DNA from: Kofleriaceae bacterium
Lineage (GTDB): Bacteria > Myxococcota_A > Polyangia > Haliangiales > Haliangiaceae
Assembly (NCBI GenBank): GCA_965215005.1
Contig: CBDCCZ010000009.1
Coordinates: forward strand, 1 to 64,000
DNA length: 64,000 bases
Reading direction: 5' to 3'
Made by a program: the position numbers and the translations under genes. The notes beneath the pieces are model-generated. The model was not told where the DNA came from. It was given only the letters and a program-made list of their open reading frames with translations, and did not search any database. This document shows positions 27,050 through 43,863 of this stretch, piece after piece. Positions within the stretch are counted from its first letter, which is position 1. Every line of letters begins with the position of its first letter.

Positions 27050-30000
27050 TTACGCCGCGGGAATGCGAAACGAGAAGGTAGCGCCTTTGCCTAGCTCGCT
27101 CGTGACCCAGATCGTGCCGCCGTGGCGAGTGACAATTTCGCGGCTGATATAGAGGCCGAGACCGATGCCACTCGAGCGCTGCTCGCCGGCGCCTTGGGCG
27201 TACTTCTCGAAGAGGCGTGCGCGAATGTCTTCGCTCATACCGGGGCCGTTGTCGCGGACGTCGACCCGCACGTAAAGGCGGGTGACGTCGCTGTCGACGA
27301 CGAGCGGCGACCAGGCGGCGTCGCCGCGAGCCAAGGGCAAGGGCGCGTCAGGGTCATCTTCGGAGAGTCGTTCGGTGCGGACGCTGATGGCGATAGCGCC
27401 GTCGGTGGGGGTGAACTTGACCGCGTTGTTGAGGATGTTCGACAGAACCTGAGCGATGCGATCGGGATTGCCGAGAGCGGTGGTGGCGAGACGGGAGGTG
27501 TCGGCGCGAATGTCGATGCGCTTGTGCTCACAAACCGGGCGGTACGTATCGACGACGTCGCGCAGGAGCTCGGCCATGTCGAACGGAGCCAGCGACCACT
27601 CGACGTTGCCGGTTTCGTGGCGAGACAGCTCGAGGACGTTGTCGACCAAGCGGCGCAGACGCTCGGCGTCGCGGCGAATGCGGGTGAATAGCTCTTCGGC
27701 TTCCATGCCGAGCGCACGCATCTCTTCATCACTTTGGCCGATATCGGCGTAGCCGAGAATGCCGGCTAGCGGGTTGCGAATCTCGTGGGCGAGGATCGCT
27801 ACGAGCTCGCTCTTGCGCTTCTCTTCGACCAAGAGGCGCGAGTTTTCGATTGCAAGCGCGACCTGCGCCGCAAACGCCTCGAGCAAGGTCAAGTCGACAT
27901 CATGCTCTTCGAAGGCGAGACGGCGGCTGTCGATGTAGATGATGCCGATGATGCGGCCGTGAGCGCGCAGCGGCGCGCACATGATCTGCCGAAGTCCCAA
28001 GGCCACCACGCTCTTCTGTTCGCGCAGCTCATCTTCGTCGGCGATGTCGGCGACGCTCACGGCTTCTCCCGAGCCGGCGACGCGACGCACGATGGTGCCC
28101 GAGAACTCGGCTTCGTCGCGGGCGAACCCCCTGGCGCCGGGACGCAGCCGGCGCAAGCGCTCGCGTGGTCGACCGGAATCGTCCAAGAGCAGCACGAAGC
28201 CGCGCTCGAAGCGCGTAAGCGCCAAGATTTTGTCGAGCGCAATTTCGAGCAGCCGCTCGACCTCGACGTTTGCTACCGCTTGCGTGAGCTCGAGCAAGAG
28301 GTCGAGACCGCGGCGGCGCAGGCCGCGTGCAGAACGGGCGCTTCGCACGCTGCTGATGGCGCCCAGCGACGCCCCCAATGCGCGCTGTCGTGCCCGCGCG
28401 GCGGTGAGATCCCAACGCGCTCCGAGCGCCGCGAACGCTTCGATGGCAACGGCGATAGTCTGGGTTGCCGCGTCGAGATCGCCACGAGCTGCGGCGATCT
28501 CGGCAGCTTCCATGTCGACTTTTGCGCCCTCGTAGCGGGCGCCCAGGCTGCTGATGAGCTCGCGCGCGCGATCGATGAACCACGCAGCCGAGTCGCGGTC
28601 GCCCTGCAGGCGCAGCGCGTGCGCCACAACGCGGTGCAGAATGCCTTCTTCGAGCCGCGTGCCGGCGTCTTTGGCTTCGCGAGCGGCGTCGATGGCGGCA
28701 TCGAGAGCAACCTCGATGCGCCCCGCGGCGATGTCGAGCTCGCACATCCGCCGCCGCGTCTCGATGGTGTCCTCGCGCGCGCCGATGTGCTCGAACCGCT
28801 GCATGGCGCTCTCGAAGCAGTCGCGAGCTTGGCTGAGCTCGCCCATGCGGAACAACGTCTCGCCGCGGTTGCCGAGGATCATCGCCGCCATATGCGCGTG
28901 ACCGGTCTTGTCGGCGACTCGTGCCGCGCGCTCGAAGGAGGCCAACGCATCGCCATGCTGCCCCAAGTCGCGATACAGCGACCCGAGGTTGTTTAGCGCA
29001 TTCACCAGCTCAGATTGTTCACCTTGGCGCTCGCACAGGCGGCGGAAGCGCTCCCAAGAGACACGTGCTCGCTCCCAGTCGCCTTGGAAGTAACAGGCGG
29101 CGCCGAGGTTGTTGAGGGAGCGTGCAGCTTGCTCGATGTGGCCCAGCCGCTCGACGACAGCGATGGCTTTCTCGAGCGCTTCGATGGCGCGCGCGTAGTC
29201 GCCGGCGTGAATCGCGGCGCGGCCAGTCTCGTGCAGCACGCCGGCGGTGAGTAGCTCATCGCCCACCGCTTCGGCGTGAGCGAGCGCGACGTCGAGCTGC
29301 TCGAGCGCGGCGCGGGTGTCGCCTTGATAGATATCGACCGCCGCACGCAATCGGCCGAGCTCGGCAGCGGTCTCGCGATCGCCGGTGCTCTGCGCGATTA
29401 CTAGCCCCGCGACCGTGTGCTCCATGGCGGCTTTGTAGTCGGCGCGATACATCAGCACCCAACCGATGCGCAAGTGACAACGAGCTTCCTCGGTCACCAG
29501 TCGATGGGCTCGCGCTTCGCCCAAGGCTGCCATCAGCGTGGCCAGTGCGGTGTCGCCCTCGCCGCGCCGTCGCTGTAGCTCGCCGAGACGAAGCGCGACG
29601 CGGACTCGCGCGGCCGGCAGCTGCGTCGTTGCCAGCGCACGCTCATAGCTCGTGCACGCATCGTCGGTATCGCCGATGAGGCTTTGCAGATCTCCGAGGC
29701 GCTCGTCGACGAGAGCGGCCTCGGCCGAATCGTGAATCTGCGGCCGAACGCGTTGGTACCACTGCAGGGACCCGTAGTGGTCGTAGCTCTGGGCGTGGCC
29801 CTTTGCCGCCGCCAGCCCATACGACACCGAGCGCTCGTCATCGCCAATCGCTTGGTAGTGTCGGGCCAGCTGCGCGGCAACTTCGACGCGCGCGGCGGGA
29901 CCGCGAGCTTCGAGCACGGCAGCGGCGCGGCGATGTAGCTCGAGCCTCTGCTCGACGTCGAGCTCGTCATACAGCACGCTCGCCAAGCCGTGCTGCGCGA

Positions 30001-31873
30001 AGCGAAACGCACCGGTCGCGGCATCGCCGGCCAAGACGTGGGCGCGCGCCGCTTCGGCGAGCGCTGCATCCGCGTCGTCATCCGCACCGCCAAGAAGCGC
30101 CGCCGCGGTGTCGCGATCGAAGCTATCGCCTAGCACCGCAGCGACCTCGAGCGCGCGCCGCGCCGCCGGCGGCAGGGCCTGAGCACGCGCATGTGCTGCC
30201 GCCAGCGCGTCGCTTGGAACCGGGATGGTGGGTTTGCGATGGCGCAAGATCCAGCGACCGCGCTCGCGCGCGACCTCGCCGCTGCCAACGAGCAGCTCGA
30301 GCGCTCGCGTCGCATGGGACGGATTGCCGCCAGAAGCGCGATAGAGGTCATCCGCTAGCGCATCGCCGATATCGTCGTCGAAGGCTTGCGACGCCAGCCG
30401 CACGACGCTCAAGCGATCGATGGGTGGCAGGTGCATGAGCTGTCCATGCTCGGAATCGTCGACGGCGGCATACAACCGGGCCGCGGAGTCGGCTGGATTA
30501 CCGTGCGCCTGATCGCGCGCCGCCATGACTAGCAGCACCGCGGAGTCGATGACCGAACGCGCCAAGTATGCGAGCAGCTCGGCGGTCGCTGAGTCGGCGA
30601 GGTGAGCGTCATCGACGGTGATGAGCACCGGATGCGTGGCTCCGACCTGCAGGACGACGCCGGTGACCGCTTCGGCGAGAGAAAACCGCGAGGCGCGATC
30701 GATGGGAGGCGCATCGCTGCGGCCGCCGAGCAGCGGCGCCAGCGCGGTCTGCCACTCTGGGTGTAGCTCGCGACTCGAGCCGCCAATACTGGCGAGTAGG
30801 CCACGCACCAGCATGGCGATGCCCGCGTAAGGTGTCTCGCGTCGCGTGGCCACCTCGGTGCTGAAAACCTGGCCGCCATCGAGCTGCACGTAGAGCTTGA
30901 GCTCTGCCATCAGCCGGCTCTTACCAATGCCTTCTTCGCCGATGAGCAGGGCGCACTGTCCCTGGCCGTTGCGAATCTCCGTCCATGCGCGCTGCAGCGT
31001 CGATAGATCGCGCTCACGGCCGACGAGCACCCCGCCGAGATCGATCAGTGGTCGGGTATCGGCAATCGCGAAGTGGGTGCCGGCAAGCTCGTTGATGCGC
31101 GCCAGCACCTCATCGGCAGTCTGCGGACGAGCGCCGGGCATCGGGTCGCAGAGTGCGACGACCAGCTCGGCCAGCGGTCGCGGTAGCGTCTTTACATGCG
31201 TGCAAGGGTCTTCGGGAGGTCCACGGCGTTGCGCCGCCAGTACCTCGCGCACGCTGCTGCCGCGGTACGGCAGCTCGCCGGTGAGCATTTGGTAGAGCAC
31301 GATGCCGAGCGCGTAGAGATCGGAGCGGGCATCGAGGCGACCCGCGTAGACCTCTGGCGCGGCATAGGGAAACGTGCCGCGTGCCGCTTGTGACGCGGGA
31401 TCATCGATGGCAGCGGCGAGGCCGAAGTCTGCAAGGCGCGCCGCGCGCTCGGGACTCTCTTGCAAGAGGCGCGCATCGACGAGCACGTTGGAGGGCTTGA
31501 TGTCCGCGTGCACCATCCCGCGCGCGTGAACCAGTGCGAGCGCGCGCAACATGCCGCCGATGAGGCGATAGAACAGCGGGGAGGGGACCTCGCTCACGGC
31601 TTCGAGCAGCGATGGTCCCTCGACATACTCCATGGTGAAGAAGTCGTGGCCCGAGTCGGTGAGGCCGTAATCGATGACCGAGACGATGTTGTCGTGTTTG
31701 AGTCGCGCTAACGCGAGAAACTCGCTGCGCAAGTTGGCGGCGCCGTGCGCTCGCGGCATCACCTTCATCGCGTAGATCGCACCGCTGCCGCGATCTCGGA
31801 CCCGGTTGACGACACCAAGACCACCTGAGCCGATCCGGTCCAGGACCTGGTAGCGCTCCGTGGACGAGGTCAT
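27050..31873 (-). CDS. Hybrid Ser/Thr kinase-AAA-TPR-GAF-histidine kinase
   Basis: GSGGLG, HADIKPSN, DFG, APE; GEEGIGKS; TPR array (SLNNLG); GAF (IMCAPL..IYIDS); AHEIRNPL, N box, DNGPG, GIGLGL. Confidence 0.93.
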   Translation of the reverse strand: MTSSTERYQVLDRIGSGGLGVVNRVRDRGSGAIYAMKVMPRAHGAANLRSEFLALARLKHDNIVSVIDYGLTDSGHDFFTMEYVEGPSLLEAVSEVPSPLFYRLIGGMLRALALVHARGMVHADIKPSNVLVDARLLQESPERAARLADFGLAAAIDDPASQAARGTFPYAAPEVYAGRLDARSDLYALGIVLYQMLTGELPYRGSSVREVLAAQRRGPPEDPCTHVKTLPRPLAELVVALCDPMPGARPQTADEVLARINELAGTHFAIADTRPLIDLGGVLVGRERDLSTLQRAWTEIRNGQGQCALLIGEEGIGKSRLMAELKLYVQLDGGQVFSTEVATRRETPYAGIAMLVRGLLASIGGSSRELHPEWQTALAPLLGGRSDAPPIDRASRFSLAEAVTGVVLQVGATHPVLITVDDAHLADSATAELLAYLARSVIDSAVLLVMAARDQAHGNPADSAARLYAAVDDSEHGQLMHLPPIDRLSVVRLASQAFDDDIGDALADDLYRASGGNPSHATRALELLVGSGEVARERGRWILRHRKPTIPVPSDALAAAHARAQALPPAARRALEVAAVLGDSFDRDTAAALLGGADDDADAALAEAARAHVLAGDAATGAFRFAQHGLASVLYDELDVEQRLELHRRAAAVLEARGPAARVEVAAQLARHYQAIGDDERSVSYGLAAAKGHAQSYDHYGSLQWYQRVRPQIHDSAEAALVDERLGDLQSLIGDTDDACTSYERALATTQLPAARVRVALRLGELQRRRGEGDTALATLMAALGEARAHRLVTEEARCHLRIGWVLMYRADYKAAMEHTVAGLVIAQSTGDRETAAELGRLRAAVDIYQGDTRAALEQLDVALAHAEAVGDELLTAGVLHETGRAAIHAGDYARAIEALEKAIAVVERLGHIEQAARSLNNLGAACYFQGDWERARVSWERFRRLCERQGEQSELVNALNNLGSLYRDLGQHGDALASFERAARVADKTGHAHMAAMILGNRGETLFRMGELSQARDCFESAMQRFEHIGAREDTIETRRRMCELDIAAGRIEVALDAAIDAAREAKDAGTRLEEGILHRVVAHALRLQGDRDSAAWFIDRARELISSLGARYEGAKVDMEAAEIAAARGDLDAATQTIAVAIEAFAALGARWDLTAARARQRALGASLGAISSVRSARSARGLRRRGLDLLLELTQAVANVEVERLLEIALDKILALTRFERGFVLLLDDSGRPRERLRRLRPGARGFARDEAEFSGTIVRRVAGSGEAVSVADIADEDELREQKSVVALGLRQIMCAPLRAHGRIIGIIYIDSRRLAFEEHDVDLTLLEAFAAQVALAIENSRLLVEEKRKSELVAILAHEIRNPLAGILGYADIGQSDEEMRALGMEAEELFTRIRRDAERLRRLVDNVLELSRHETGNVEWSLAPFDMAELLRDVVDTYRPVCEHKRIDIRADTSRLATTALGNPDRIAQVLSNILNNAVKFTPTDGAIAISVRTERLSEDDPDAPLPLARGDAAWSPLVVDSDVTRLYVRVDVRDNGPGMSEDIRARLFEKYAQGAGEQRSSGIGLGLYISREIVTRHGGTIWVTSELGKGATFSFRIPAA

Positions 31874-32019
31874 CGCTCGCCATCTTCGCTGCCCAGATCA
31901 CACTTCGCAAGGGCAGGTCAGCGACTGCCATCGCTGCCTGCGCGTTGAGCCGCGTTTGCAGCTGGAATGCTGGCTCCGGTGCCAAACACCGACGTGCGCT
32001 GAGAAAAATTGCGTCGGCG

Positions 32020-32050
32020 CGTGCGCGGCTCATCGGCAGTGCGGTCCCAA
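32020..32050 (+). promoter_or_regulatory. Candidate ECF promoter, copy 1 (upstream of tonB)
   Basis: CGTGCG-N16-CGGTCCCAA, 8 nt before ATG 32059. Confidence 0.6.
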
Positions 32051-32058
32051 CGGACCAG

Positions 32059-32829
32059 ATGCACAGGTGGCAATCCATAGGCGCAGCGCTGGTGGTGTCG
32101 CTGGCGGCGCACCTGGCGGTGGGTGGCCTACCTTCGTTGTGGCCGCCGGTGGAGCCGCGGCGGGATGCGCCGGAGCCGGTGCCGGTGGTGCTCGTGCCGG
32201 TGGCGATGAGCGGCGGGCAGGGCGCGGCGGCCGCGAGCGCGGTGGCAAACGCGGCAGCTAGCGATGAGCCTGCGGCGGCGCCTCGCCGAGCGTCGACGTC
32301 GGCACGGCGATCAAAAGCCCCGTCGGCGACGCCGCGACTCGAGAAGGTGCGGCAGCGCGCTCCGGTTGCGCTGGCGCCGAGCGATGCCGACGCGATGCGG
32401 CTTGGCTCGCTGGGTGGCGGAGTCTTGGGCGACGTTGGGGCACCGCCGGGAGGCATGTCTGGCGGTGGGGCCGGCGCCGGCGCGGGTGTAGGTCGTGGCT
32501 CCGGCGGCGCGGGGCGCGCAGGCGCAGGAAGCGGCGCTGGCTCAAGCGCGATCACGCGCTGGCCACGGGCGCTCAATGAACGGCGCATCGAGCTGCGGTA
32601 TCCGCCGGCGGCGCGCGCCCGCAAGCTCACCGGGCGCGTCGAGCTCGAGCTCGAGGTCGGTGCCGATGGCCGGGTGCATCACGCGTCCGTTCGTGCCGGC
32701 GCGGGTGAAGCCTTCGATAAAGCCGCGCTCGAATACGCACGCAAGCTGCGTTTCACCCCCGCGCTCGCAGGACAGCGCGCGGTAGCGGTTCGCATCGCGT
32801 GGACCGTCAACTTTCGAGGTGTTCGATGA
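32059..32829 (+). CDS. tonB: TonB family energy transducer
   Basis: SLAAH TM motif, Gly-rich spacer, YPPAAR...GRVEL...LRFTPA TonB_C. Confidence 0.85.
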   Translation: MHRWQSIGAALVVSLAAHLAVGGLPSLWPPVEPRRDAPEPVPVVLVPVAMSGGQGAAAASAVANAAASDEPAAAPRRASTSARRSKAPSATPRLEKVRQRAPVALAPSDADAMRLGSLGGGVLGDVGAPPGGMSGGGAGAGAGVGRGSGGAGRAGAGSGAGSSAITRWPRALNERRIELRYPPAARARKLTGRVELELEVGADGRVHHASVRAGAGEAFDKAALEYARKLRFTPALAGQRAVAVRIAWTVNFRGVR

Positions 32830-35297
32830 AGGCATTAACATGCGCGGCCGTAGCGCTCGCGGCGATGGCAGCGGTAGCCGAGGCGCAGCCAGTCGCTCCA
32901 GACGAAGCGCCAGTGGTCGAAGAAGCGCCGGCCGCAGACGAAGCGCCGGTCGTGGACGAGGTGCCGGTCGTTCGAAACGAGGCGCTGGTCACGCCAGCTC
33001 GGCTGCTAGCGCCGGTTGTACCGGTGTATCCATCGCTGGCCAAAGACAGCGGCCTAGAAGCCGACGTCGCCGTGCTCATCGACGTCTCGGCGACCGGAGC
33101 CGTCACAAGCGTCGTGGTCGTGGAGCCCGTCGGCAGCGGCTTCGATGAGGCCGCTCTTGCCGCGGCTCGAGCGATGCGGTTTACGCCGGCGCAGCAGGCC
33201 GGAATGCCCGTCGCCTCGCAGGTGCAACACACCTTCGCGTTCCGCAAAGAAACCGCGCCGCGCTCGCAAAAGCCGGAGCCGCAGCCCGTGCGCAGCGACG
33301 AAACGTATCGCACCGAGGTGTGGCTTGGCGGCGACGACTCCACCGTCGGCACCGTGGTGCTTTCGGAAGAAGAGCTGCGCGAGCTGCCTGGAACCCTCGG
33401 CGAGCCGATGCGCGCCGTCATGCTTTTGCCCGGCGTCACCACCTCGACGACCGGCGTGGCCTACCCGATTATTCGCGGTTCACTACCTGGCGAGTCGCAA
33501 TACGTGGTCGACGGCATCCAGGTGCCGTTGCTGTATCACTTCATGCTCGGCACGTCCGTGCTGCATCCCAACATCATCGGCGAGCTCGAATTTCATCCTG
33601 GGGGCGTTCCGGCGCAACACGGCAGGCTACTGGCAGGATTGGTGGAAGCGCATTTGGCCGACGCTCCCGTCGAGCGCAAAGACGAGGTTCGTCTCACCCT
33701 CGTCGACGTCGGTCTCTATCACGGGCAGCCCATCGGCGAGGACGCCGATCTCGTTGCCGCGGTGAAGGCAGGCACCCTTGGCGCGATCGCCTGGCTCATC
33801 GACCCCAGCATCATCGTGAGCTACGCCGACTACCAAGCGCGTTATCGGCACGATATCGGCGCGGGTCGGCTCTCGCTCACCGCCTTGGGCGCGTGGGACC
33901 TCATCAAGTTCGTGCCGAAAGACGACGAAGATACGGCGGAAGACGATCTGTGGCTTGGCTTTCACCGGCTCGATCTCCGCTATGACAGGCCCGTTGGCGC
34001 TAGCAACGTCGCCGTCGGGGTAGAGCTTGGTTACGACGCCATCGGCAGCAACTCCAATGGACGTGATGCACCCGTGGAGGGAGACCCAGATTTTCCGCCG
34101 GAGCGGCCCGATCCGAAGCTCAGCGACTGGCGAGCACGACCGCACGCACAGCTCACCTCGCGCCTCACCGATACGCTCGGAATGCGCGTGGGCGCCGACG
34201 TTTTGCTGCAGCGACCGCGGGTGCGAGGCGCTGATATCACGTCGGCCGACGAGCTCGAACCCTCGCCCTATATTGTCAAGCCGAGCTCGATTGTCACCAG
34301 CGGGGCATGGCTTGGGCTCGACTGGATCTTGGGCGCCCTGACGGTGCGGCCCGGCGTGCGCGTCGATCACTATCGAACCAACACCGACGAGGGCCGCTTC
34401 ACCGACACCACCATCGATCCGCGACTAGCCCTCGACTATCGCGTTCATCGCGACGCTACCCTCAAAGCCGCCGTAGGCGTGTATCACTCGCCGCCGCGAT
34501 TCACGCTGGTCGACAGCAGAATCACCATTGGGCCAGTACCAGCGACCGATGGCCGTGGCGCTCGCTACGGCAGCAATCGCTCGCTTCAGACCCAGCTCGG
34601 TATCGAAGCGTGGCTGGCGGACATGCAGGCCACCGCCACCGCCTTCTACCAACAGAGTGACTATGCCATTGACCTCGGCGCTCTCGATTTACCGGTCGTT
34701 CCCGACGACCGCGAGTTCTGCGACACCGGGACCTTCGTCGAGGACAGCGAGCGGGCGCGGCCCGTCGGCGTGAAGGGCCGCAGCTATGGCCTCGAGCTCA
34801 TGGGCCGGCAACCGCTCGGCGAAGAGGTGTTTGGCTGGGTTAGCTACACGTTGTCGCGCAACGAGCGCGAGGTCGCCGGAGTCGGCCGCTTTCCGACCAA
34901 CTTCGACCAGACGCACGTGCTCAATGGTGCACTGTCGTGGACGCCGAACCGCCGCTGGACCCTCGGCGTGGCAGCGCAGGTGCATAGTGGTGTGGCGGCG
35001 ACCGGTGTTATCAGCAAGCGCTGCGAGCTGTCGCTGCCGGACCAGCCTGGCTACACCTACGTCGACACGAAACCAGGCCGTGTGAACGGCGAGCGCCTGC
35101 CGTGGTTTTGGCGCGGCGACGTACGCGCCGAGCGCCACTTCGAGCTCGATGGTTGGAAGCTCCACGTCTTCTTCGAGATGATCAACGCCACGCTGCAGAC
35201 CGACTACCAAAGCTTGGAGGTCAATAACGCTGGCGAGACCAAGCCCTCGGGCTTCCCCATCGTCGTACCGATGATCGGTGCGCGCGGTGAGTTCTAA
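32826..35297 (+). CDS. TonB-dependent receptor with an N-terminal TonB_C-like domain
   Basis: Signal peptide; PVYP...GFDEAALAAARAMRFTPA; plug LPGV..IIRG; DPRL, GRSYGLEL, DQTH; terminal GARGEF; ATGA overlap. Confidence 0.88.
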   Translation: MKALTCAAVALAAMAAVAEAQPVAPDEAPVVEEAPAADEAPVVDEVPVVRNEALVTPARLLAPVVPVYPSLAKDSGLEADVAVLIDVSATGAVTSVVVVEPVGSGFDEAALAAARAMRFTPAQQAGMPVASQVQHTFAFRKETAPRSQKPEPQPVRSDETYRTEVWLGGDDSTVGTVVLSEEELRELPGTLGEPMRAVMLLPGVTTSTTGVAYPIIRGSLPGESQYVVDGIQVPLLYHFMLGTSVLHPNIIGELEFHPGGVPAQHGRLLAGLVEAHLADAPVERKDEVRLTLVDVGLYHGQPIGEDADLVAAVKAGTLGAIAWLIDPSIIVSYADYQARYRHDIGAGRLSLTALGAWDLIKFVPKDDEDTAEDDLWLGFHRLDLRYDRPVGASNVAVGVELGYDAIGSNSNGRDAPVEGDPDFPPERPDPKLSDWRARPHAQLTSRLTDTLGMRVGADVLLQRPRVRGADITSADELEPSPYIVKPSSIVTSGAWLGLDWILGALTVRPGVRVDHYRTNTDEGRFTDTTIDPRLALDYRVHRDATLKAAVGVYHSPPRFTLVDSRITIGPVPATDGRGARYGSNRSLQTQLGIEAWLADMQATATAFYQQSDYAIDLGALDLPVVPDDREFCDTGTFVEDSERARPVGVKGRSYGLELMGRQPLGEEVFGWVSYTLSRNEREVAGVGRFPTNFDQTHVLNGALSWTPNRRWTLGVAAQVHSGVAATGVISKRCELSLPDQPGYTYVDTKPGRVNGERLPWFWRGDVRAERHFELDGWKLHVFFEMINATLQTDYQSLEVNNAGETKPSGFPIVVPMIGARGEF

Positions 35298-35330
35298 GGC
35301 GACTTAAGGCGAACCAACTAGGAGTAATCG

Positions 35331-35954
35331 GTGAACCTCGAAATGCAAATGTCTGCGTTCGCACTACACGGCGCTGCCTGGGTGCTTTGGCTGCTCGTGG
35401 CACTGTCGGTGCTGTCTCTTGCCATCATTTTGGAACGGGCCGTGTTCTATTGGCGCCGTCGCGTGAACATCGATTCGTTGATTGCCCGCATGGAGCGTCC
35501 GCTGCGTGCCGGCGAGCTGCCGCGGCTGTCGCCAGCACGGTCGATGGAGCACTGGGTTGCCGGTGCTGGGTTGGGCCAGCTCTCGCACGGCGCCGAGCGT
35601 GTCGCCGATGCGATGCGCGCCGAGGAGCTGCGCACCCGCGCTGACTATGAGCGCGGGCTGTCGATTCTCGCGACGCTCGGCGCCAACGCACCGTTCGTTG
35701 GCCTGTTCGGCACCGTGCTCGGGGTGATCCGCGCGTTCGCTGACCTCTCCCGCGGCACCGCCGCCGGCGCTAGCGCGGTGATGGCCGGCATCTCTGAGGC
35801 GCTAGTCGCTACCGCGGTGGGCCTTGCCGTCGCGCTGCCGGCCGTCGCTGCGTACAACATCTTTCAGCGGCGCCTGTCGCGCTCGAGCGCCAACTCCGAG
35901 CGGCTGCTCCATCACTTGGTCGCCTACGCGCGCAGCTACCCGAGGAGTCATTGA
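35331..35954 (+). CDS. exbB: MotA/TolQ/ExbB family protein
   Basis: APFVGLFGTVLGVIRAF, GISEALVATAVGL. Confidence 0.92.
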   Translation: MNLEMQMSAFALHGAAWVLWLLVALSVLSLAIILERAVFYWRRRVNIDSLIARMERPLRAGELPRLSPARSMEHWVAGAGLGQLSHGAERVADAMRAEELRTRADYERGLSILATLGANAPFVGLFGTVLGVIRAFADLSRGTAAGASAVMAGISEALVATAVGLAVALPAVAAYNIFQRRLSRSSANSERLLHHLVAYARSYPRSH

Positions 35955-36379
35955 TGGGCGCCGGTGCGGGCTCGCGCGGTGGCGGTCCCATCGCCGACAT
36001 CAACGTCACGCCGCTGGTCGACGTGATGCTCGTCCTCCTCATCGTGTTCATGGTCAGCGCCGAGCTCATTGACCGCGGGGCACTGCCGGTGACGATGCCG
36101 ACGGCGGCGAGCGCTTCTGCGCCGCCGGTCTCGCCCATCGGTGTGACCGTGACGGTCGACGGCAGCATCGCCATCGGGGAGCGGGTGTGGCCCGACGCGG
36201 ACCAGGCGGCCGCGGCCATCGTCGCCGAGCAGTCCCGCGAGCCCCGGCCGGTTCTGCTCACCGCCGATAAGGATGCGCGCTATCAGCAGCTGGTGACCGT
36301 GCTCGAGGCGCTGAGCGCCGGCGGTGTCACCGAGCTCGGCCTCGCGGTTCGCGTCGATGACGGCCAAGGTGGCTCATGA
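35951..36379 (+). CDS. exbD: ExbD/TolR family protein
   Basis: INVTPLVDVMLVLLIVFMV; ADKDARY. Confidence 0.9.
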   Translation: MMGAGAGSRGGGPIADINVTPLVDVMLVLLIVFMVSAELIDRGALPVTMPTAASASAPPVSPIGVTVTVDGSIAIGERVWPDADQAAAAIVAEQSREPRPVLLTADKDARYQQLVTVLEALSAGGVTELGLAVRVDDGQGGS

Positions 36380-37176
36380 GGCGGAAGCGGATGATTCTCG
36401 ACGGCCTCCAGCCGCCGCGCTACCCTCGAAGCTCGCTGATGCGTCGCCGCTGGATCAGGCCCGAGATGTTGCTCGGGGCACTCGCGATGCTCGGCAGCGG
36501 GTGTGAACCGCTCGCCGATGACACGTACGAAGGCGAGCCGCTCCTCGTCGTCAACGGCTACTTCGTTGACGACGCTGGCGAGTACGCTTCTGGAGGTGAC
36601 CTACAGCCCGTGATTTGGTGGATACCGCCTCCCGACTCGACGGGCGAGTTCGTGTTCGTGGATTCTGGTTACTCGAATGGGTCTGACTTCAACCTCTGGT
36701 TGTCGATTTTGTTCGAGCCCTGGCTCGAGGTAATCGCTCCCTTAGCAACTCCTTTTGGCGCTGACGCTTCTGCTCCGCTGGCGTTTGGGCAAATCGTGGG
36801 AGTGCCCCGCTCGAGTTGGGGCCCCGCTAGAAGAGAGTTCTACCCGCGAGAGGAGTGGCCTGCGCGGATCGCTGCCGTCGTAGAGGGCTATGTCGTTGTG
36901 TCTGTGGGAGAGCGGCCGGGGAGTCCAACGGTGGATGCGAGCGTTCGATTGTTCGGCATCTCCATGGCCCCAGGCATCTATCTTGCGTCGGTGACGCCCC
37001 GCGATGCCGACGAGTTGGCGCAGGCAGAGGCCTGCGAAGCGGCGGCCACGAGCTTGGAAGCGTGGGTGGCGTGTCCCAGCCGGTGGCCCGCGATCACGCC
37101 GCTCAGGTCCGGTAGTGTGGAGGCGCGGAAACTGGGAAGGCTCGAGGGAGTTCCTGCGTTTTCGTGGCCGCAGTAG
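36376..37176 (+). CDS. Hypothetical lipoprotein
   Basis: Lipobox LGSGC followed by YEGEPL; ATGA-coupled to exbD, though the true start may be further downstream. Confidence 0.65.
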   Translation: MRRKRMILDGLQPPRYPRSSLMRRRWIRPEMLLGALAMLGSGCEPLADDTYEGEPLLVVNGYFVDDAGEYASGGDLQPVIWWIPPPDSTGEFVFVDSGYSNGSDFNLWLSILFEPWLEVIAPLATPFGADASAPLAFGQIVGVPRSSWGPARREFYPREEWPARIAAVVEGYVVVSVGERPGSPTVDASVRLFGISMAPGIYLASVTPRDADELAQAEACEAAATSLEAWVACPSRWPAITPLRSGSVEARKLGRLEGVPAFSWPQ

Positions 37177-37191
37177 ATTGTTGCGCAGTTC

Positions 37192-37222
37192 CGTGCGGGA
37201 TTATCAGCGACTGCGGTTCTAA
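37192..37222 (+). promoter_or_regulatory. Candidate ECF promoter, copy 2 (autoregulatory position)
   Basis: CGTGCG-N16-CGGTTCTAA, 6 nt before GTG 37229. Confidence 0.7.
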
Positions 37223-37228
37223 CCAACA

Positions 37229-37762
37229 GTGCCCGTGACACCGCAGCAGTCTCGCCCGACCCAATCGACCGAGGAGCCAGCACCCGCCGTGGATGTTGCT
37301 GCCGCGTATCGGTCGTACGGACACTCTGTGCTTCGCCGTGCCCGGCAGCTGCTCGGCGACGAGGACGAGGCCGCCGACATCATGCAAGACGTGTTTTCGT
37401 CGCTCTGGCACCGTCCAGAGCAATACGGCGGCCGCGCGGCGCTCTCGACCTGGCTGTACCGCGCGACGACGAACCTGTGTCTCAACCGGATGCGAAACCG
37501 CAGCAATCGCGATCGACTGCTGGTAGAGAAGGTCGCCCCGGCCATCGAGCGAGAAGGCGCCTCGGCCGCGGCTGAGACCCTGGCGCGGCAAGTCCTCAGT
37601 CAAATGCCAGTGGACCTGGCGCAAGCGGCTATTCACTACTTCATGGACGGAATGACCCATGAAGAAGTCGCCCAAGTGATGGATTGCTCACCCCGTCACG
37701 TCGGAAACCTGATCAAGCGAGCACAACGATGGGCGCAACAGCGGGAGGTTGCCCAGCCATGA
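37229..37762 (+). CDS. ECF-type RNA polymerase sigma factor
   Basis: Sigma2 EAADIMQDVF...TWLYRATTNLCLNRMR; sigma4 DGMTHEEVAQVMDCS. Confidence 0.92.
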   Translation: MPVTPQQSRPTQSTEEPAPAVDVAAAYRSYGHSVLRRARQLLGDEDEAADIMQDVFSSLWHRPEQYGGRAALSTWLYRATTNLCLNRMRNRSNRDRLLVEKVAPAIEREGASAAAETLARQVLSQMPVDLAQAAIHYFMDGMTHEEVAQVMDCSPRHVGNLIKRAQRWAQQREVAQP

Positions 37763-38505
37763 CTCAAAACCAACTTCAGGAGTATTGCGTTTCGAATCTG
37801 CAAATTGACCGCTGGCTCGTCGATGAGCTGGAGGCCGATGAAAAGCGGCGCTTCGATGAGCACTGCGCGATGTGCTTGGCGTGTCGTCGCCGGCGCGGTG
37901 AGCTCGCGGCGACGGCGCGCGCGTTCGCTGCTGCGTCGCCGCCGCTCGAGGTGTTGTCGGCAGCACCACCGCGCACGGCTCGACGCTGGTCGCGCGCGGC
38001 TGCAGGCGCGGCCGCGGCTCTGGCCATGGCCGCGGCGGCGCTGCTACTGATGCGCCCCGAGGGGGCGGGAGCTCCGCCACAGGTAGCGTCGTCAACGCGA
38101 AGCAAGGGCAGCGAGGCCCGGTTAGAGGTCGTTCTCGCGTCTGAGGGAGCACAGCGGCTGATCGATAGCGGCGCCGTCGTCCATCCGGGAGACCTGCTCC
38201 AGCTCCGCTATACTAGTCCTCGCAGCGGATACCTGGCGGTGTTAGGGCGCGATCAGACGGGAATGATCAGCGCGTATTACGAGGCCGATGGTCATGCTGC
38301 AGCCATCGTGGCCGGTTCTGAGATTGCTCTTTCTAACGCAATCGAGCTCGATGACACTTTAGGAACGGAAACGCTGTACGGGTTCTTCTGTGCCGATCCC
38401 GTGGCCATCAAGGCCTTGCGGGGCGTTCTCGAAGCACAGCCAGCCGAGCGAGTGGTGCCAACATCATGCGAGCTGCAGGAACTATCCTTCGACAAGCAGC
38501 GCTGA
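37759..38505 (+). CDS. Zinc-binding transmembrane anti-sigma factor with a DUF4384-like extracytoplasmic domain
   Basis: HCAMCLAC (HxxxCxxC), one TM helix, PGDLLQLRY..GYLAVLG..IELDDTLGTE; ATGA overlap with the sigma gene. Confidence 0.82.
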   Translation: MTQNQLQEYCVSNLQIDRWLVDELEADEKRRFDEHCAMCLACRRRRGELAATARAFAAASPPLEVLSAAPPRTARRWSRAAAGAAAALAMAAAALLLMRPEGAGAPPQVASSTRSKGSEARLEVVLASEGAQRLIDSGAVVHPGDLLQLRYTSPRSGYLAVLGRDQTGMISAYYEADGHAAAIVAGSEIALSNAIELDDTLGTETLYGFFCADPVAIKALRGVLEAQPAERVVPTSCELQELSFDKQR

Positions 38506-40076
38506 CCGCCGCCGTTGCCGCGGTGCTGGTTTCCATGAGCGGTTCGGCGCACGCCGACGCCCCGCGGTATGCGGTAGTCGTTGGCAACAACGATGGCGCG
38601 CCCTCACAGGGCAAGCTCGAATACGCGGAAAGCGATGCGCTCAAGATGTTCGAGGTATTGCAGGGCATCGGCGACTTCGCTGCCGCAAACACGCTGCTGC
38701 TCCGGGGCGCCAACGCTAGCGCTGTCAATGAAGCGGTTCTAACGGTCAATGAGCGCATTCGCGGCCTCGATCCAGCAGAGCGCGAGCGCTCGATGCTCGT
38801 TGTCTACTATTCGGGTCACGGTGATGCGAGTGCGCTGCACCTCGGCGACAGCACGTTCCCGCTTCGTCGGCTCGAGAAGCTCGTGAGCGGCTCCGCTGCC
38901 GCGGTGCGGGTGTTGATACTCGATTCCTGTCGTTCAGGTGCCGCCACGCGGGTCAAGGGCGGTCGGCTGGTGCCTTCGGTGCAAGTGCAACTGCGCTCGC
39001 GGCTTTCGAGTGAAGGGTTGATCATCCTCACGGCCAGCGCAGCCGGAGAAGATGCGCAAGAGTCAGATGAGCTGCAAGGGTCATTCTTCACGCACTATCT
39101 GGTTTCCGGACTTCTCGGCGCCGCCGATCGCGACGGCGACAACCACGTTGGCCTGCAAGAGGCCTACGACTACGCGTACCAGCACACGCTGCGAGCCTCG
39201 AGCCGAACGCTGCAAGGGGTTCAGCATCCGACCTTCCGCTTCGACACCCGCGGTACCAAAGATATCGCCTTCACCCGCGTTGCGCGTCCGACGCAGCGAG
39301 CGCAAATCGAGCTCCCCAAGGGTTATAGTTATCTACTGCTGCGTTCGGGACACCGAGGAGCGGTGGTGGCCGAGGTTGATGCCACCGACCCGGTACGGAC
39401 GCTGAGTCTGTCGCCAGGACGTTACTTCGTGCGCGTCCGTGCACGGGACTATTTGCTCGAAGGCCAGGTCGAGCTGCGCGCTGGCGTTGCCACCCGCGTC
39501 AACCACGAAGAATTCCGCCGCACCGACTATGCGCGCTTGGTTCGAAAGGGCGGAAGTGATCTTTCGCTGGTACACGGGCCTCGCTTGGCGTTCAGCTATC
39601 GCTCCGCGCTTTTGGGTGAGGGCGAGGCTACGGGTCTCTCCTTGTCCTACGTCTTCGAGAGTCGCTATGCCACGGTGGCGCCGCGACTCTCCTTCCGCGA
39701 AGAAGACATCACGACGCAAGTGACCTCATCGGCGCTGGGCGAGATGAGTGCAGATGTATTTCTCGGACATTCTTTGGATGTGCCGTGGCGAACGACGCTC
39801 GAAGTGGGCGCTGTCATCGGCGGAGCGCTCCTGTCGCAGAAGTATGACCAACCGAGTACGACGGTCACACCCGATCGGCTATCGAGCACGGTCTTCTTGG
39901 GCACTGAAGCCACAGTGTTGCGCGAGCTGCCTGGCGGAACGTACCTAAGTATCACCCTTGGCTCACGCTCTTACTTCTTTGGCACCATCGGCGCCGCCAA
40001 TAGCTCCGCTTCAACCGGATCCCGAGAGCAGCATTTCGCCTGGATCCTCGACTTTGGTATCGGCAAGCGCTGGTAG
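38466..40076 (+). CDS. Exported caspase-family (peptidase C14) protein with a predicted C-terminal beta-barrel
   Basis: Signal peptide ending AHA; YAVVVGNN, YYSGHG (His), ILDSCRSG (Cys), SFFTHYL, QHP; amphipathic strands ending DFGIGKRW. Confidence 0.88.
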   Translation: MRAAGTILRQAALTAAVAAVLVSMSGSAHADAPRYAVVVGNNDGAPSQGKLEYAESDALKMFEVLQGIGDFAAANTLLLRGANASAVNEAVLTVNERIRGLDPAERERSMLVVYYSGHGDASALHLGDSTFPLRRLEKLVSGSAAAVRVLILDSCRSGAATRVKGGRLVPSVQVQLRSRLSSEGLIILTASAAGEDAQESDELQGSFFTHYLVSGLLGAADRDGDNHVGLQEAYDYAYQHTLRASSRTLQGVQHPTFRFDTRGTKDIAFTRVARPTQRAQIELPKGYSYLLLRSGHRGAVVAEVDATDPVRTLSLSPGRYFVRVRARDYLLEGQVELRAGVATRVNHEEFRRTDYARLVRKGGSDLSLVHGPRLAFSYRSALLGEGEATGLSLSYVFESRYATVAPRLSFREEDITTQVTSSALGEMSADVFLGHSLDVPWRTTLEVGAVIGGALLSQKYDQPSTTVTPDRLSSTVFLGTEATVLRELPGGTYLSITLGSRSYFFGTIGAANSSASTGSREQHFAWILDFGIGKRW

Positions 40077-40132
40077 CGCCGCCACAGCGAGGCGGAGCTG
40101 CGCGCGCTGCAGCCGTTTGCTCGTTTCTCATG

Positions 40133-40163
40133 CGTGCGTGAGCCGCGCCTGCGACGGTTCTAA
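40133..40163 (+). promoter_or_regulatory. Candidate ECF promoter, copy 3
   Basis: CGTGCG-N16-CGGTTCTAA upstream of lipoprotein paralog 1. Confidence 0.7.
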
Positions 40164-40239
40164 TTGGAGAACGGAAACGCTGGCCGACAAACGTGCTGGT
40201 CAGATAAACCGATCAGTCACCAAACGTAGGAGAATGAAT

Positions 40240-40623
40240 ATGCAATACAAGCTGATCTCGATGCTGCTCGTTTCGTGCAGCGTGCTGACTGCAGCTTGCG
40301 ACAATACCTGTGAGTTGTCAAAAAGCCAGAACACAATGGTCGAAGCGGTGGATGACACCTACGAGTTCACGTGGACCGATGACAACGTGACGGAGCTGAT
40401 TGTATCGCTCCAGACCTCCGAAACCGAGGGGGAGGTCGTGTGGTGGATCGCAGCGGCACCCGGAAATACGCTGCCTTCAGGCCTTCGCTATGGAGAGGTG
40501 CCTCCCGGCGCGACGGTTACGTCTGCCGCCGAAGATATCGTCGAAGGCGGCAAGTATGGAGTGTCGGTTCTTATGGACAATGGCGACCAGAGCTGCTTCT
40601 TGGATAGCGATTTTTCGAGCTGA
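40240..40623 (+). CDS. Small lipoprotein, paralog 1
   Basis: AGGAG RBS, lipobox LTAAC, TYEFTWTDDNV, LPSGLRYG. Confidence 0.85.
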   Translation: MQYKLISMLLVSCSVLTAACDNTCELSKSQNTMVEAVDDTYEFTWTDDNVTELIVSLQTSETEGEVVWWIAAAPGNTLPSGLRYGEVPPGATVTSAAEDIVEGGKYGVSVLMDNGDQSCFLDSDFSS

Positions 40624-40626
40624 TCC

Positions 40627-40789
40627 GGCACCAGCTTGCCACTGGTCACCGCGGGTGTATGCGGCAAGGAGGGCGCCGAACCTGCAGTGCAGTCAAGTGA
40701 CCGAGAGGCGGAAGGGACGCGCCTCCTCGAATCCTCACAACACGCCGGCCGGCGATAGCTGCGTCGTTCGCAGCGGTCTCACCCGCTAA
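40627..40789 (+). pseudogene. Decayed C-terminal remnant of a fourth lipoprotein paralog
   Basis: LP..EGA..D.E..G spaced as in the paralogs, then after a 1-nt shift GDSCVVRSGLTR* versus GESCVAESDFSR*. Confidence 0.45.
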
Positions 40790-41052
40790 GCCAGAGCCAT
40801 CGCCAGCACCAACGCCGGCGATGGCAGGTGCGCGAAGACGGCTGGGAATTGAGATCGTCGTGCGCAAGGTGCGCCCGCGACGGTTCAAAGCAAAGGACGT
40901 GGTCGGTGGTCGACGAAGCGGCTGATCATTGCCCAAATTCCATTTCACCTAACCCCAGCTCCGAGACTGTCTCACCTAGCGTCGGAGTATAGACATGCGT
41001 TGTGAATTTGTTGTGGGAGAGAGCTGCGGAATCTGTTTTTTATCGCAGTTGT

Positions 41053-41083
41053 CGTGCGCGAGGACCGCGCACGGCGGTTCTAA
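41053..41083 (+). promoter_or_regulatory. Candidate ECF promoter, copy 4
   Basis: CGTGCG-N16-CGGTTCTAA upstream of lipoprotein paralog 2. Confidence 0.7.
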
Positions 41084-41153
41084 CTTGAGAACGTGATCGC
41101 TGGCCGGTAGGAGCACTGGTCACATTGAAGCCATCATCAAACTAGATAGGAAA

Positions 41154-41549
41154 ATGAACATGCGTTACAAACTTGCCCTGATTCTGATTGCTATTTTGTT
41201 TTCGACCGTATTGACTGCAGGCTGCGATGGTACCTGCGAGTTGACGGCTAGTCAGGATGTTGCTGTCAAAGCGGTTGATGATACATATGAGTTCACGTGG
41301 ACCGATGACAACGTCACAGCGTTGCGCGTCACGCTTTGGACCTCAGATGACGAAGGAACCGTGGTGTGGAGCGTTGCAGCGGCCCCGGGAAAGAAGCTGC
41401 CTTCCGGAATGCGTTACGGACAGGTGCCTGAGGGCGCGACTGCGTCGACCGCCGCCAAGGATCTGGAAACAGGTGGCAGATACACGACGGTGATCGAGAT
41501 GGAAGAAGGCGGGGAGAGCTGCGTTGCGGAAAGCGACTTTTCCCGCTGA
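41154..41549 (+). CDS. Small lipoprotein, paralog 2
   Basis: Lipobox LTAGC, TYEFTWTDDNV, LPSGMRYG. Confidence 0.85.
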   Translation: MNMRYKLALILIAILFSTVLTAGCDGTCELTASQDVAVKAVDDTYEFTWTDDNVTALRVTLWTSDDEGTVVWSVAAAPGKKLPSGMRYGQVPEGATASTAAKDLETGGRYTTVIEMEEGGESCVAESDFSR

Positions 41550-41580
41550 GCGGGCGCCAGCACCCACGAACCTTCGCTGA

Positions 41581-41605
41581 GACGCCGTGTGCGGCACACG
41601 GCGTC
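41581..41605. other. Intergenic hairpin
   Basis: GACGCCGTGTG-CGG-CACACGGCGTC, perfect 11-bp stem between paralogs 2 and 3. Confidence 0.6.
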
Positions 41606-41647
41606 CTCGGAACGTTCACTAAGCCGATGTCTATAGGAGAATATCAG

Positions 41648-42058
41648 ATGCATATCAAGAACATACTGGTCCTTGTGGGGCTCGTCGCTTCCTGCGCAGG
41701 ATCCGCGGGTTGCGTCGAAGAATCCTGCGGGTGGGAAGCTGATCAAGAGCTCGCGGTCACGAAAGTCGACGGGACGTACGAGTTCACGTGGACGGAGGAC
41801 AACGTCGTCAAGATGACAATCAACGATGTTGGCGTCAGACAAGATCCAAACGAATCGGTGGACGAGGCTGTAGTTTGGCGCGTCGAAGCGGCGCCCGGTG
41901 CCAAACTTCCTTCGGGAGTTCGTTACGGGGTCGTGCCGGCCGGCGCAACCGCGCCAACTGCCGCCAAGGACCTCCAGCCAAGTGGCAATTACCGTGCGTT
42001 GGTGACGATGGAAGATCACGGCGAGGAGTGCTACGGGCACGTCGAGTTCTCGAAGTGA
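41648..42058 (+). CDS. Small lipoprotein, paralog 3
   Basis: AGGAG RBS, lipobox-like VASC/SAGC, TYEFTWTEDNV, LPSGVRYG. Confidence 0.85.
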   Translation: MHIKNILVLVGLVASCAGSAGCVEESCGWEADQELAVTKVDGTYEFTWTEDNVVKMTINDVGVRQDPNESVDEAVVWRVEAAPGAKLPSGVRYGVVPAGATAPTAAKDLQPSGNYRALVTMEDHGEECYGHVEFSK

Positions 42059-42076
42059 CGCTTGGCGGGTGTCTCG

Positions 42077-42114
42077 AGACCGAGGTTTCCGGGCCCTGGC
42101 GGGAACCTCGGTCT
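42077..42114 (+). terminator. Hairpin after the lipoprotein array (no U-tract)
   Basis: AGACCGAGGTTTCC-N10-GGGAACCTCGGTCT, 14-bp stem with one G-U pair. Confidence 0.45.
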
Positions 42115-42462
42115 AACGATTCCGGCGTAAGTCATTAAGGTGGGCGAAGTGACCACCGCTTGAGGAGACACCGAGCCGGGGCGCGTGAGCCGCAGAAATC
42201 TGCCGCGCTTGCCCCGCATAGGGGCTGCGGATTTCAGGGTTGCGGATCCCGCGGCGTCGTACCCGAGCTGCTTCGCAGCGAATGCCGAGTAAAGGTGCAA
42301 GTGAACCGCTAGCGAGCTTCATCTTTCTAAACGCGGTTCATGGTGGCATCAGGATTCTAGTGCCATTGATTGCCAGCTTGTGCCGGGCTTTGCTGTCCAT
42401 TGCATGCGCGCTGCGCCGCGGCGCGTGCGAGATTCAGCCGCAAAGCCATGAGGAGGCTGTGC

Positions 42463-42753
42463 ATGACTACTACTAATTACTTGCGTGGACTGATTGTGCT
42501 CATTTCTTTATCGTTTACTGCATGCGGTGGAAGCCAGTCCGCAACGTCAACGTCGTCCGGGGCGCCATCGAATCCGACTTCCGCCACGGCTGCCTCGTCT
42601 GACGACGAGGTCGTTTGCCATGACGAGCAGGTCACCGGAAGCCATTTGCCACGCAGGATCTGCATGAGCAGTACCGAGCGCGAGCGCCGCAGGGAGCAAG
42701 ACCAGAAGACCCTGCGGGACCGCGTGCCCGTGCAGATCAAGCCTGCTCAGTGA
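42463..42753 (+). CDS. Small lipoprotein with a C-x5-TGSH-x5-C motif
   Basis: AGGAGG RBS, lipobox FTAC, Ser-rich linker, VVCHDEQVTGSHLPRRIC. Confidence 0.8.
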   Translation: MTTTNYLRGLIVLISLSFTACGGSQSATSTSSGAPSNPTSATAASSDDEVVCHDEQVTGSHLPRRICMSSTERERRREQDQKTLRDRVPVQIKPAQ

Positions 42754-42813
42754 GCCGCTAACGAGCTAGGCGGCGGCTGCACAACGCCGCTCGGTACGGA
42801 TCCGCGGCGTTGC

Positions 42814-42883
42814 CAGCCGCCAGCCGCTGCCGAAAGCCAGCGGCTGCCAAAGCCAGCCGTCGCCGAAAGCCAGCCGTCGCCGG
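42814..42883. repeat. Imperfect short tandem repeat of about 18 bp
   Basis: Recurrent CAGCCGYYGCCGAAAGC-like units in intergenic DNA. Confidence 0.6.
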
Positions 42884-42969
42884 AGAAGGTTGCCCTCAGC
42901 GCGGCTTGATGAGATCTCACAGGCGTCGCGAGCGGCTGCGCCGCGGCCTGTAGCGGCGTAAGGTGAGGT

Positions 42970-43863
42970 GTGAGCTTCTTCGACCGATTTCGTCGCAAGC
43001 CTAGCGACTCCGCCAGCGATGGCGGAGACGCGCCCGTGGTGGTCTCGTCGCAGGCCATCGACTTGGCGCATGCGGCTGCCGATCATCTGCGGTTGCTCTA
43101 TCCAGACGCCGCGGGTGCCGTGCAGCTCACGTTCGAGACCGGCGAGAGCGGCTTGATCATCGCGGCCGCCGAGCTCGAGAGTCTGGCCGAGGAGCCGCCT
43201 CCGGACGTGCTCGTGGACGCGACCGAGCTGCGGCGAGCTCTTTTGCTCGAGGCCGTCGAGCAACTGTTGCGTGCGCTGGGCGTGCCGGAGGAACGTGCGA
43301 CGGCCTTCGAGCTGAAAGTATGGCCAGAACGGCTGTCCGTTCTCGGTTTCGAGATCGCCATCGACGAGCAGCGGTTGATGTATGGCGCTGCGTTCATGGC
43401 GGCGCTGCGGGCTTCGGCCGACGCGGCGATGCGTCGTCAAGAGGAGCTGCAAGCGGCGATGGCCGCGCTCGGCATGCGCCGCGTGAGCTGGGATCGCGAG
43501 GGCGGTTCTTTGTATTTGGTGGCAGCCGACGAGGCCGAGGTTGCCCGTGTGCCCGCCGATCTGCTGGGTACGTTCGCCGAAGCTGGCTCGTGGTGGTGGG
43601 CGTGGGCCGATGATGAGCTCGACCCCGCTCACGTCGCTGCCTCGCGCGTCCTACGCGAACGTGGCGCCAGCGCCGGTTTGGCCGTACTCGGCGCTCCGCA
43701 GTTCCCCTGTACGGCGCCGTTTGCTCTCACGCTGGCGCAGCTTGGCGCCGCTGAGCTGGGGGAGCGGGCATTCTGGCGGTGGCAGCAGGGCGGGGTGCAG
43801 CGATTCTTCGCCGTCGATCCCAATGACGTTGTGGCCATTGCAGGGGATTCTCGACGCGAATGA
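42970..43863 (+). CDS. Hypothetical protein with a C-terminal DUF6882-like domain
   Basis: WDREGGSL...LLGTFAEAGSWWWAWAD motif. Confidence 0.7.
   Translation: MSFFDRFRRKPSDSASDGGDAPVVVSSQAIDLAHAAADHLRLLYPDAAGAVQLTFETGESGLIIAAAELESLAEEPPPDVLVDATELRRALLLEAVEQLLRALGVPEERATAFELKVWPERLSVLGFEIAIDEQRLMYGAAFMAALRASADAAMRRQEELQAAMAALGMRRVSWDREGGSLYLVAADEAEVARVPADLLGTFAEAGSWWWAWADDELDPAHVAASRVLRERGASAGLAVLGAPQFPCTAPFALTLAQLGAAELGERAFWRWQQGGVQRFFAVDPNDVVAIAGDSRRE

Follow-up and report, generated by a model that had tools for sequence, protein, structure and literature searches.

The window analysed here is a stretch of 64,000 nucleotides (nt) from a Kofleriaceae bacterium (assembly GCA_965215005.1, contig CBDCCZ010000009.1, positions 1 to 64,000 of the forward strand). 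It holds several copies of the bipartite motif CGTGCG-N16-CGGTYCYAA, which an initial annotation had taken for the autoregulated promoter of a sigma factor of the extracytoplasmic function (ECF) type encoded at 37229. From the analysis that follows it is considered probable, with good confidence, that the motif is the -35/-10 promoter of this ECF and that it drives an ECF/anti-sigma/caspase cassette, an operon of TonB genes, an array of small lipoproteins and probably also a lipoprotein gene on another contig, C18. This caspase-linked ECF lineage is apparently undescribed, and its ECF promoter is well supported.

Copies of the motif in the window and in relatives

Exact matches to the motif occur four times in the window, at 32020-32050 (copy 1), 37192-37222 (copy 2), 40133-40163 (copy 3) and 41053-41083 (copy 4), all on the forward strand; when the window was shuffled 100 times, no shuffle gave four or more. 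A scan of both strands of the assembly (6,209,310 bases in 62 contigs, 92.8% complete) shows no other exact match, nor do the same boxes occur there separated by 12-15 or 17-21 nt. When one mismatch is allowed, a fifth local copy appears at 40859-40889 on the forward strand. The four copies are thus found where the initial annotation had placed them, and the frequency of the motif elsewhere, which it had proposed to check, comes to no further match in 6.2 Mb. Each of the four lies between genes and in sense orientation to the next gene, as had also been claimed, with the caveat that the tonB frame could be extended upstream to TTG 31945, in which case it would take in copy 1; ATG 32059 is the likely start of tonB. 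Copies 1 and 2 have only the boxes in common, in agreement with their earlier description as independent. Copies 3, 4 and 5 are duplicates, since they align gap-free both in the boxes and in some 40 nt of the leader, and the shared ancestry proposed for copies 3 and 4 thereby extends to copy 5. At all five local sites the shorter boxes read GTGC-n17-CGG, with 17 nt between them.

Given that the motif was defined after the fact, the fair test is a matrix built without the window. The relatives used for this purpose comprise 60 genome stretches and 12 metagenome loci (L026-L037, the best 12 of 80). Upstream DNA was sufficient at 64 relative operon heads, and on these, with the window excluded, a two-box sampler started without a seed returned nCGTGCC-N12/13-TCGCGnTCCT at 38 of them with a score of 639, compared with 312-412 in three shuffled runs; the motif was recovered by the best 2 of 8 starts. 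The consensus at these 38 heads is GTGC-N16/17-CG[G/C/T]TYCTAA, so that motif discovery upstream of homologous ECFs, a check suggested initially, leads to the same two boxes.

The matrix was made from 36 of the sampler sites, leaving out L138, where the site lies within a gene, and L032, a near-duplicate. In the genome-wide scan, another of the checks suggested, the first rank is taken by the site on C18 (23.1 bits), followed by copy 2 (22.1 bits, rank 2) and copy 4 (19.9 bits, rank 3), and further down by copy 1 (16.4 bits, rank 13), copy 3 (16.3 bits, rank 15) and copy 5 (rank 47). With a matrix from the largest genus only (20 sites) the ranks are 1, 2, 3, 16, 17 and 24, and with one from the 16 sites outside that genus copy 2 ranks first. 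The chance rate per position, estimated for the window-free matrix with 12 control spacers, is 1.3e-8 for copy 2, 9e-8 for copy 4 and about 1.2e-6 for copies 1 and 3, and the score of the C18 site is higher than all matches at the control spacers.

In the relatives the motif follows the cassette. Of the sites scoring above 15 bits, training sites included, 56 have the orientation of the ECF and 3 the opposite one, compared with 7-16 for control spacer pairs. Among sites that were not used for training, a second copy stands directly before the downstream lipoprotein gene in 8 of the 8 loci of one clade that have this gene. In 15 whole genomes the consensus has 13 matches and its reversed control none; 11 of these are at cassettes, one precedes a truncated gene of the c3 lipoprotein family, described below, and one precedes an unrelated lipoprotein-like frame.

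The position of the motif relative to start codons fits a sigma promoter. The boxes are non-palindromic and their spacer is kept at 16 or 17 nt in the relatives. At 20 of 41 relative sites, many of them from two clades, only 5-8 nt separate the last A of the -10 box from the start codon that follows, too few to accommodate a ribosome-binding box; among the 16 longer leaders 12 have such a box, and two sites are overlap artefacts. The transcription start would then lie about 6-7 nt behind the -10 box, and many of the mRNAs are likely leaderless. In the source genome, the gap between the -10 box of copy 1, CGGTCCCAA, and the tonB ATG is 8 nt, which suggests a near-leaderless tonB transcript, and for the C18 gene it is 5 nt. 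For copy 2 it is 6 nt if the ECF starts at GTG 37229 and not at the alternative GTG 37289, which has a GAGGAG box 12 nt upstream. Copies 3 and 4 are each followed by a 76-nt leader, to lipoproteins 1 and 2 respectively, with a ribosome-binding box in the leader of copy 3.

The motif also varies with the sigma factor. In a quick version of the ECF tree, a clade of 13 rows with CLARLR or CLQKLR in sigma2.4 has CGC and a spacer of 17 in 12 of them, and a clade of 11 rows has a spacer of 16 with CGG or CGT in 10, the remaining row being masked; the ECF of the window has CLNRMR in sigma2.4 and CGG in the -10 box. It is suggestive that the spacer and one -10 base track the ECF clade and a sigma2.4 residue. 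Finally, the assembly encodes no ECF of this family other than that at 37229 (E 4e-62, the next ECF-like protein giving 7e-26). Together with the unseeded recovery, the spacing to start codons and the clade variants, this favours the earlier assignment of the motif to the ECF at 37229, which can be regarded as highly probable.

Two features were observed upstream of the -35 box. Over the 20 nt that precede it, AT content is higher than the background (0.44 versus 0.32), a possible UP element or CarD-CarG site, and five loci (L128, L129, L132, L134 and L136) have a common GAAATAG element about 10 nt upstream of the box. Neither a sigma-70-like promoter nor an Rfam family was found in 31500-43200.

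The cassette of ECF, predicted anti-sigma and caspase

Copy 2 heads three overlapping genes on the forward strand. The ECF itself (37229..37762, 177 residues) matches PF04542 and PF08281 only, that is, sigma2 and sigma4, and its nearest solved relatives are SigW, AlgU-type factors and SigE. The second gene (37759..38505) encodes a predicted anti-sigma of 248 residues with an Hx3Cx2C zinc motif, one hydrophobic helix and a DUF4384-like outer domain. The zinc motif, the single transmembrane helix and the gene position at +1 are those of a zinc-associated anti-sigma (ZAS). In the window the zinc motif reads HCAMCLAC, and both Cys are invariant in 40 of 40 family members; zf-HC2 is matched by 21 of the 40 and DUF4384 by 16, the copy of the window being under the cut-offs for both. 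In the nearest protein-atlas clusters of the anti-sigma the commonest taxon is Myxococcota. A kinship between the anti-sigma and the small lipoproteins was considered and rejected, given that their profiles are unrelated.

The third gene (38466..40076) encodes an exported caspase-like protein with a signal peptide, a His118/Cys155 dyad, a beta-sandwich and a predicted 8-stranded outer-membrane barrel. Its caspase domain belongs to Peptidase_C14 (PF00656), and the His-Cys dyad is invariant in 40 of 40 caspases. In the predicted model (pLDDT 85) Cys155 is followed by a disordered loop; the model also has the beta-sandwich and eight long C-terminal strands, and it matches procaspase-7 (E 3.7e-8) in the caspase fold and NspA (E 1.5e-6) in the outer-membrane barrel. 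By model and family the protein has the caspase fold and dyad of C14 and is a predicted protease. Outer-membrane barrels of the NspA kind keep their N-terminus in the periplasm, and the caspase domain would therefore sit there beside the outer domain of the anti-sigma.

Close matches to the caspase domain are present in 66 of 137 genomes of the family, a tally that takes in two unpublished genomes (G458 and G459) that no other result here depends on, and in none of 9 others of the order. The phylum-wide search, with 9 candidates scored per genome, adds at least 5 further genomes of 400, and a contig search with a single ECF as query gave 5 distant ECFs. The recurring unit is lipoprotein (c3), ECF, anti-sigma and caspase; ECF and caspase occur together in 67 of 78 loci, many of which were fetched by the caspase. 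In 35 of the 64 relative heads the c3 lipoprotein gene lies directly upstream of the ECF and bears the promoter.

Some loci depart from this order. At L246 (G474:C206:29347 onward) the promoter and the 5' part of c3 are kept, about 90% identical to L152, and the ECF, anti-sigma and caspase seem deleted. A gene of about 1150 residues lies between ECF and anti-sigma at L110:833-4291 and at L113 (G024 and G015). At L133, L209 and L210 the cassette is rearranged with the caspase upstream of the ECF, and at L133 the motif heads the caspase gene.

These features suggest a mechanism in which the membrane anti-sigma would hold the ECF sigma until an envelope signal activates the periplasm-facing caspase. 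The activated caspase would cut the outer domain of the anti-sigma, and an intramembrane cut of RseP type would then complete its breakdown. The freed sigma would amplify its own cassette through copy 2 and induce import and surface proteins, the conserved output being the cassette and surface lipoproteins. That the caspase gates the sigma in this way is somewhat better than an even bet, and a functional part of the TonB-dependent receptor in signalling is rather doubtful. On a broader scale, the cassette may be a widespread myxobacterial three-part switch, in which an outer-membrane caspase is dedicated to the first cut of a periplasmic anti-sigma and an often leaderless promoter is repeatedly rewired to new surface genes, with a TonB machine captured here whose receptor may feed back; this wider picture is put forward tentatively.

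Extent of the proposed regulon and alternative explanations

Copy 1 precedes five forward-strand frames that overlap or nearly abut. They encode a TonB with N-terminal anchor and TonB_C (32059..32829; PF03544, E 3e-17), a TonB-dependent receptor in which domain search finds an N-terminal TonB_C, plug and barrel (32826..35297), an ExbB/MotA family protein (35331..35954) and ExbD (35951..36379), both assigned by domain search, and a lipoprotein (36376..37176). The last has no Pfam match and belongs to c3 (E 3e-11 with a profile built from relatives), the lipoprotein family whose gene comes first in the cassette operon of most relatives; here the gene overlaps exbD. On the reverse strand, a divergent gene of 1607 residues (27050-31873) begins about 150 nt upstream of copy 1 and, with its domains read by eye, encodes a Ser/Thr kinase-ATPase-TPR-GAF-histidine kinase protein. 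A subtilase-like protein with repeated GIGTSP motifs is encoded at 24596-27001.

Copies 3 and 4 precede the array, also on the forward strand. Small lipoprotein 1 (40240..40623) belongs by family profile to a fibronectin type III (FnIII)/immunoglobulin (Ig)-like family. Small lipoprotein 2 (41160..41549) has a predicted FnIII/Ig-like beta-sandwich (model pLDDT 86), with the FnIII of gp130 as its best structural match (Z 8.9, root-mean-square deviation 3.4 over 92 residues); this predicted sandwich is a common fold and gives no function for the small lipoproteins. Their paralogue, small lipoprotein 3 (41648..42058), is without a motif copy of its own and is likely co-transcribed with lipoprotein 2. 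A 15-pair hairpin follows it (42077..42114, forward strand), which has no U-tract and is absent from the terminator-like predictions, and which possibly ends the lipoprotein unit. A word-indexed search gave no close relatives of the small lipoproteins, and a profile search placed them in a diffuse family of 120-150 residues with 61 matches. Their homologous loci, 10 in number and spread over 9 of 137 genomes, contain neither a cassette gene nor a site (best 11.2 bits), and small lipoproteins lie near none of the 67 cassettes.

The degenerate copy 5 (CGGTTCAAA) has a leader that aligns with those of copies 3 and 4, its ribosome-binding box and gene being lost; no open frame with a ribosome-binding box was found downstream of it. 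The segment 40859-40930 is thus an orphan promoter-plus-leader duplicate, and could be a weak upstream promoter for lipoprotein 2 or the source of a short RNA. Over the array (40000-42000) G+C is 0.57-0.59, compared with about 0.65 around it. After the array, at 42370-42753, there is a small lipoprotein-like gene with its own ribosome-binding box and without a motif copy.

The distal copy, at C18 81009-81039 on the reverse strand, lies before a gene for a Cys-rich lipoprotein of 533 residues with a PPC domain (G000:C18:79402-81039, minus; L166:3402-5039). None of the high-scoring sites belongs to this lipoprotein's paralogue at C51:12355-13896.

Several results weigh against this interpretation of the motif or narrow it. 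The motif was drawn from the window's own copies, and about 30 chance positions per genome reach the scores of copies 1 and 3, which therefore count only by position. Among the relative heads 26 of 64 have no site, four ECFs of a distant clade among them. The relatives are kin, with 20 of the 36 training sites from one genus, and with the 16 sites outside this genus copies 1, 3 and 5 drop to ranks 59, 83 and 499. The correlations of spacer and -10 base with clade are single events. The spacer on C18 is one base shorter, 16 nt where each of the five local sites has 17, and a site is missing from all 19 homologous loci of the C18 lipoprotein, so that the C18 gene is probably a lineage-specific target, or the site an orphan. 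TonB genes are near 2 of the 67 cassettes, both with distant ECFs (39 of the 78 loci tested being at least 15 kb), and no site of 14 bits or more was found upstream of the homologous receptor loci (25 short and 11 extended). Because of this rarity, and given that the receptor and small-lipoprotein homologues are without a site, the TonB module and the array are recruits of this genome and not conserved members.

The initial annotation had tied all these genes into one system with a local four-site regulon. For this genome the single system holds, and elsewhere it reduces to the core of lipoprotein, ECF, anti-sigma and caspase; likewise the four sites stand, and with the fifth copy and the distal one on C18 the regulon is probably not purely local.

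A more radical doubt is that the motif arose by chance and local duplication and has no function. Copies 3, 4 and 5 do stem from duplication and the definition was post hoc, but copies 1 and 2 share the boxes only and the motif is recovered independently in the relatives, so that this explanation is already largely refuted and can be given hardly any credence. It is also improbable that another sigma factor or a transcription factor reads the motif in place of the adjacent ECF. About 19 further sigma-like proteins are encoded in a genome that is 92.8% complete, and the C18 spacer differs, which would leave room for another reader; against it, the motif goes with the cassette from genome to genome and hardly occurs away from it, its variants track the ECF tree, and it is non-palindromic and at a fixed distance to start codons.

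Two further alternatives accept the promoter and concern what is attached to it. Most ECF anti-sigmas rely on unlinked proteases, and here the anti-sigma is a presumed substrate of the caspase; the sigma could be released without the caspase, which would be an output only, a housekeeping site-1 protease cutting the anti-sigma. This is a real but lesser possibility, given the strict linkage of the three genes (the 67 of 78 loci mentioned above), the invariant dyad, the predicted periplasmic location of the caspase beside the outer domain of the anti-sigma, and the association of DUF4384 with proteases and with the caspase substrate Csx30, as far as the part of the report consulted shows (10.1101/2022.08.17.504292). 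The link to TonB, in turn, may be accidental, which is plausible without being favoured and is compatible with the motif being the promoter of the ECF. The TonB genes would have inserted between copy 1 and c3, and the receptor would have no signalling role. The direct c3-ECF order with promoter in the relatives, compared with the overlap of c3 with exbD here, points this way, as do the few cassettes with TonB genes and the lack of sites before homologous receptors. On the other side, the tonB ATG follows copy 1 after 8 nt and the ECF has retained an internal promoter of its own, as if both units were selected. The simplest history would be that the TonB genes came between the head promoter (copy 1) and c3, the internal copy serving the ECF.

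Relation to known systems

The comparisons with published systems made here draw on parts of the cited sources. The closest is DdvS/DdvA of Myxococcus xanthus, with a mapped promoter GTAAn16CGT and a local regulon of four promoters (PMC6061681), and with RseP-type cleavage shown for truncated DdvA (PMC11506125). Shared with the present cassette are a myxobacterial ECF, a zinc-type membrane anti-sigma and, as predicted for the cassette, a periplasmic caspase-family domain and self-activation (PMC6061681, PMC11506125), together with the GT..-n16-CG. promoter layout, four local promoters and AT-richer DNA near the promoters (0.44 versus 0.32 here). Whereas in DdvA a TPR-CHAT domain is fused to the anti-sigma, here a separate Peptidase_C14 is carried on a predicted outer-membrane barrel and the anti-sigma, of 248 residues, has a DUF4384-like domain. 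The boxes are GTGC and CGGTYCTAA and not GTAAn16CGT, and the proposed targets are transport and surface proteins in place of the CRISPR/CBASS genes of DdvS.

A caspase-like protease acting on a sigma-binding protein or a sigma is also found in Csx29/Csx30/RpoE of type III-E CRISPR, where some Csx30 have a DUF4384 C-terminal domain (10.1101/2022.08.17.504292), and in SAVED-CHAT/PCaspase/PCc-sigma of Haliangium (10.1101/2023.06.23.546230). These CRISPR-linked systems are cytoplasmic and CRISPR-triggered, in contrast to the envelope location predicted for this cassette. No cas or CBASS genes were seen among the recurring cassette neighbours, no scan against a defence library having been made. By analogy, the cassette may function as a split DdvS/DdvA and may also resemble the CRISPR-linked pairs of caspase and anti-sigma in its working, yet it lacks the defining features of both.

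In the ECF classification (PMC7826278), ECF25 is similar in having anti-sigmas with zinc and/or DUF4384 domains and in taking in Deltaproteobacteria, and ECF216 in being myxobacterial with a zinc-finger one-helix anti-sigma. The promoter predicted for ECF25, GGAAC/GTC (subgroups 1 and 2), was not found here, that of ECF216 is described as not conserved, and the descriptions of both groups, as far as consulted, name no caspase neighbour. Neither a GTGC or CCTAA motif nor a caspase neighbour appears in the consulted part of the classification text, and a matching subgroup in its tables or logos is possible. The literature search, which leaves most subscription papers uncovered, gave no published description of the cassette or of the motif.

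In FecI/FecR/FecA, an ECF sigma and its anti-sigma control a TonB-dependent receptor operon, and a comparable link between ECF/anti-sigma and such an operon is proposed here. The present receptor differs in its N-terminal TonB_C, the anti-sigma is of zinc type and not FecR, and the TonB link is not conserved. Neither a FecR nor an STN domain was matched among the window proteins at E up to 0.1.

A self-activating ECF promoter is in itself ordinary, and the weight lies with the module to which this one belongs. To our knowledge, most bacterial caspases still await a substrate and a role, and a defined promoter together with a caspase in 66 of 137 family genomes offers a direct reporter read-out for a bacterial caspase. 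If the proposed mechanism is true, it would provide a natural substrate and a transcriptional output for a bacterial caspase in envelope sensing, outside cell death and CRISPR. The promoter consensus is supplied for an ECF lineage for which none was found in the consulted part of the classification text (PMC7826278), and the locus shows a regulon gaining targets through promoter duplication and capture. Other ECF-caspase or CHAT neighbourhoods appear in the consulted parts of PMC8195603 and PMC8999054.

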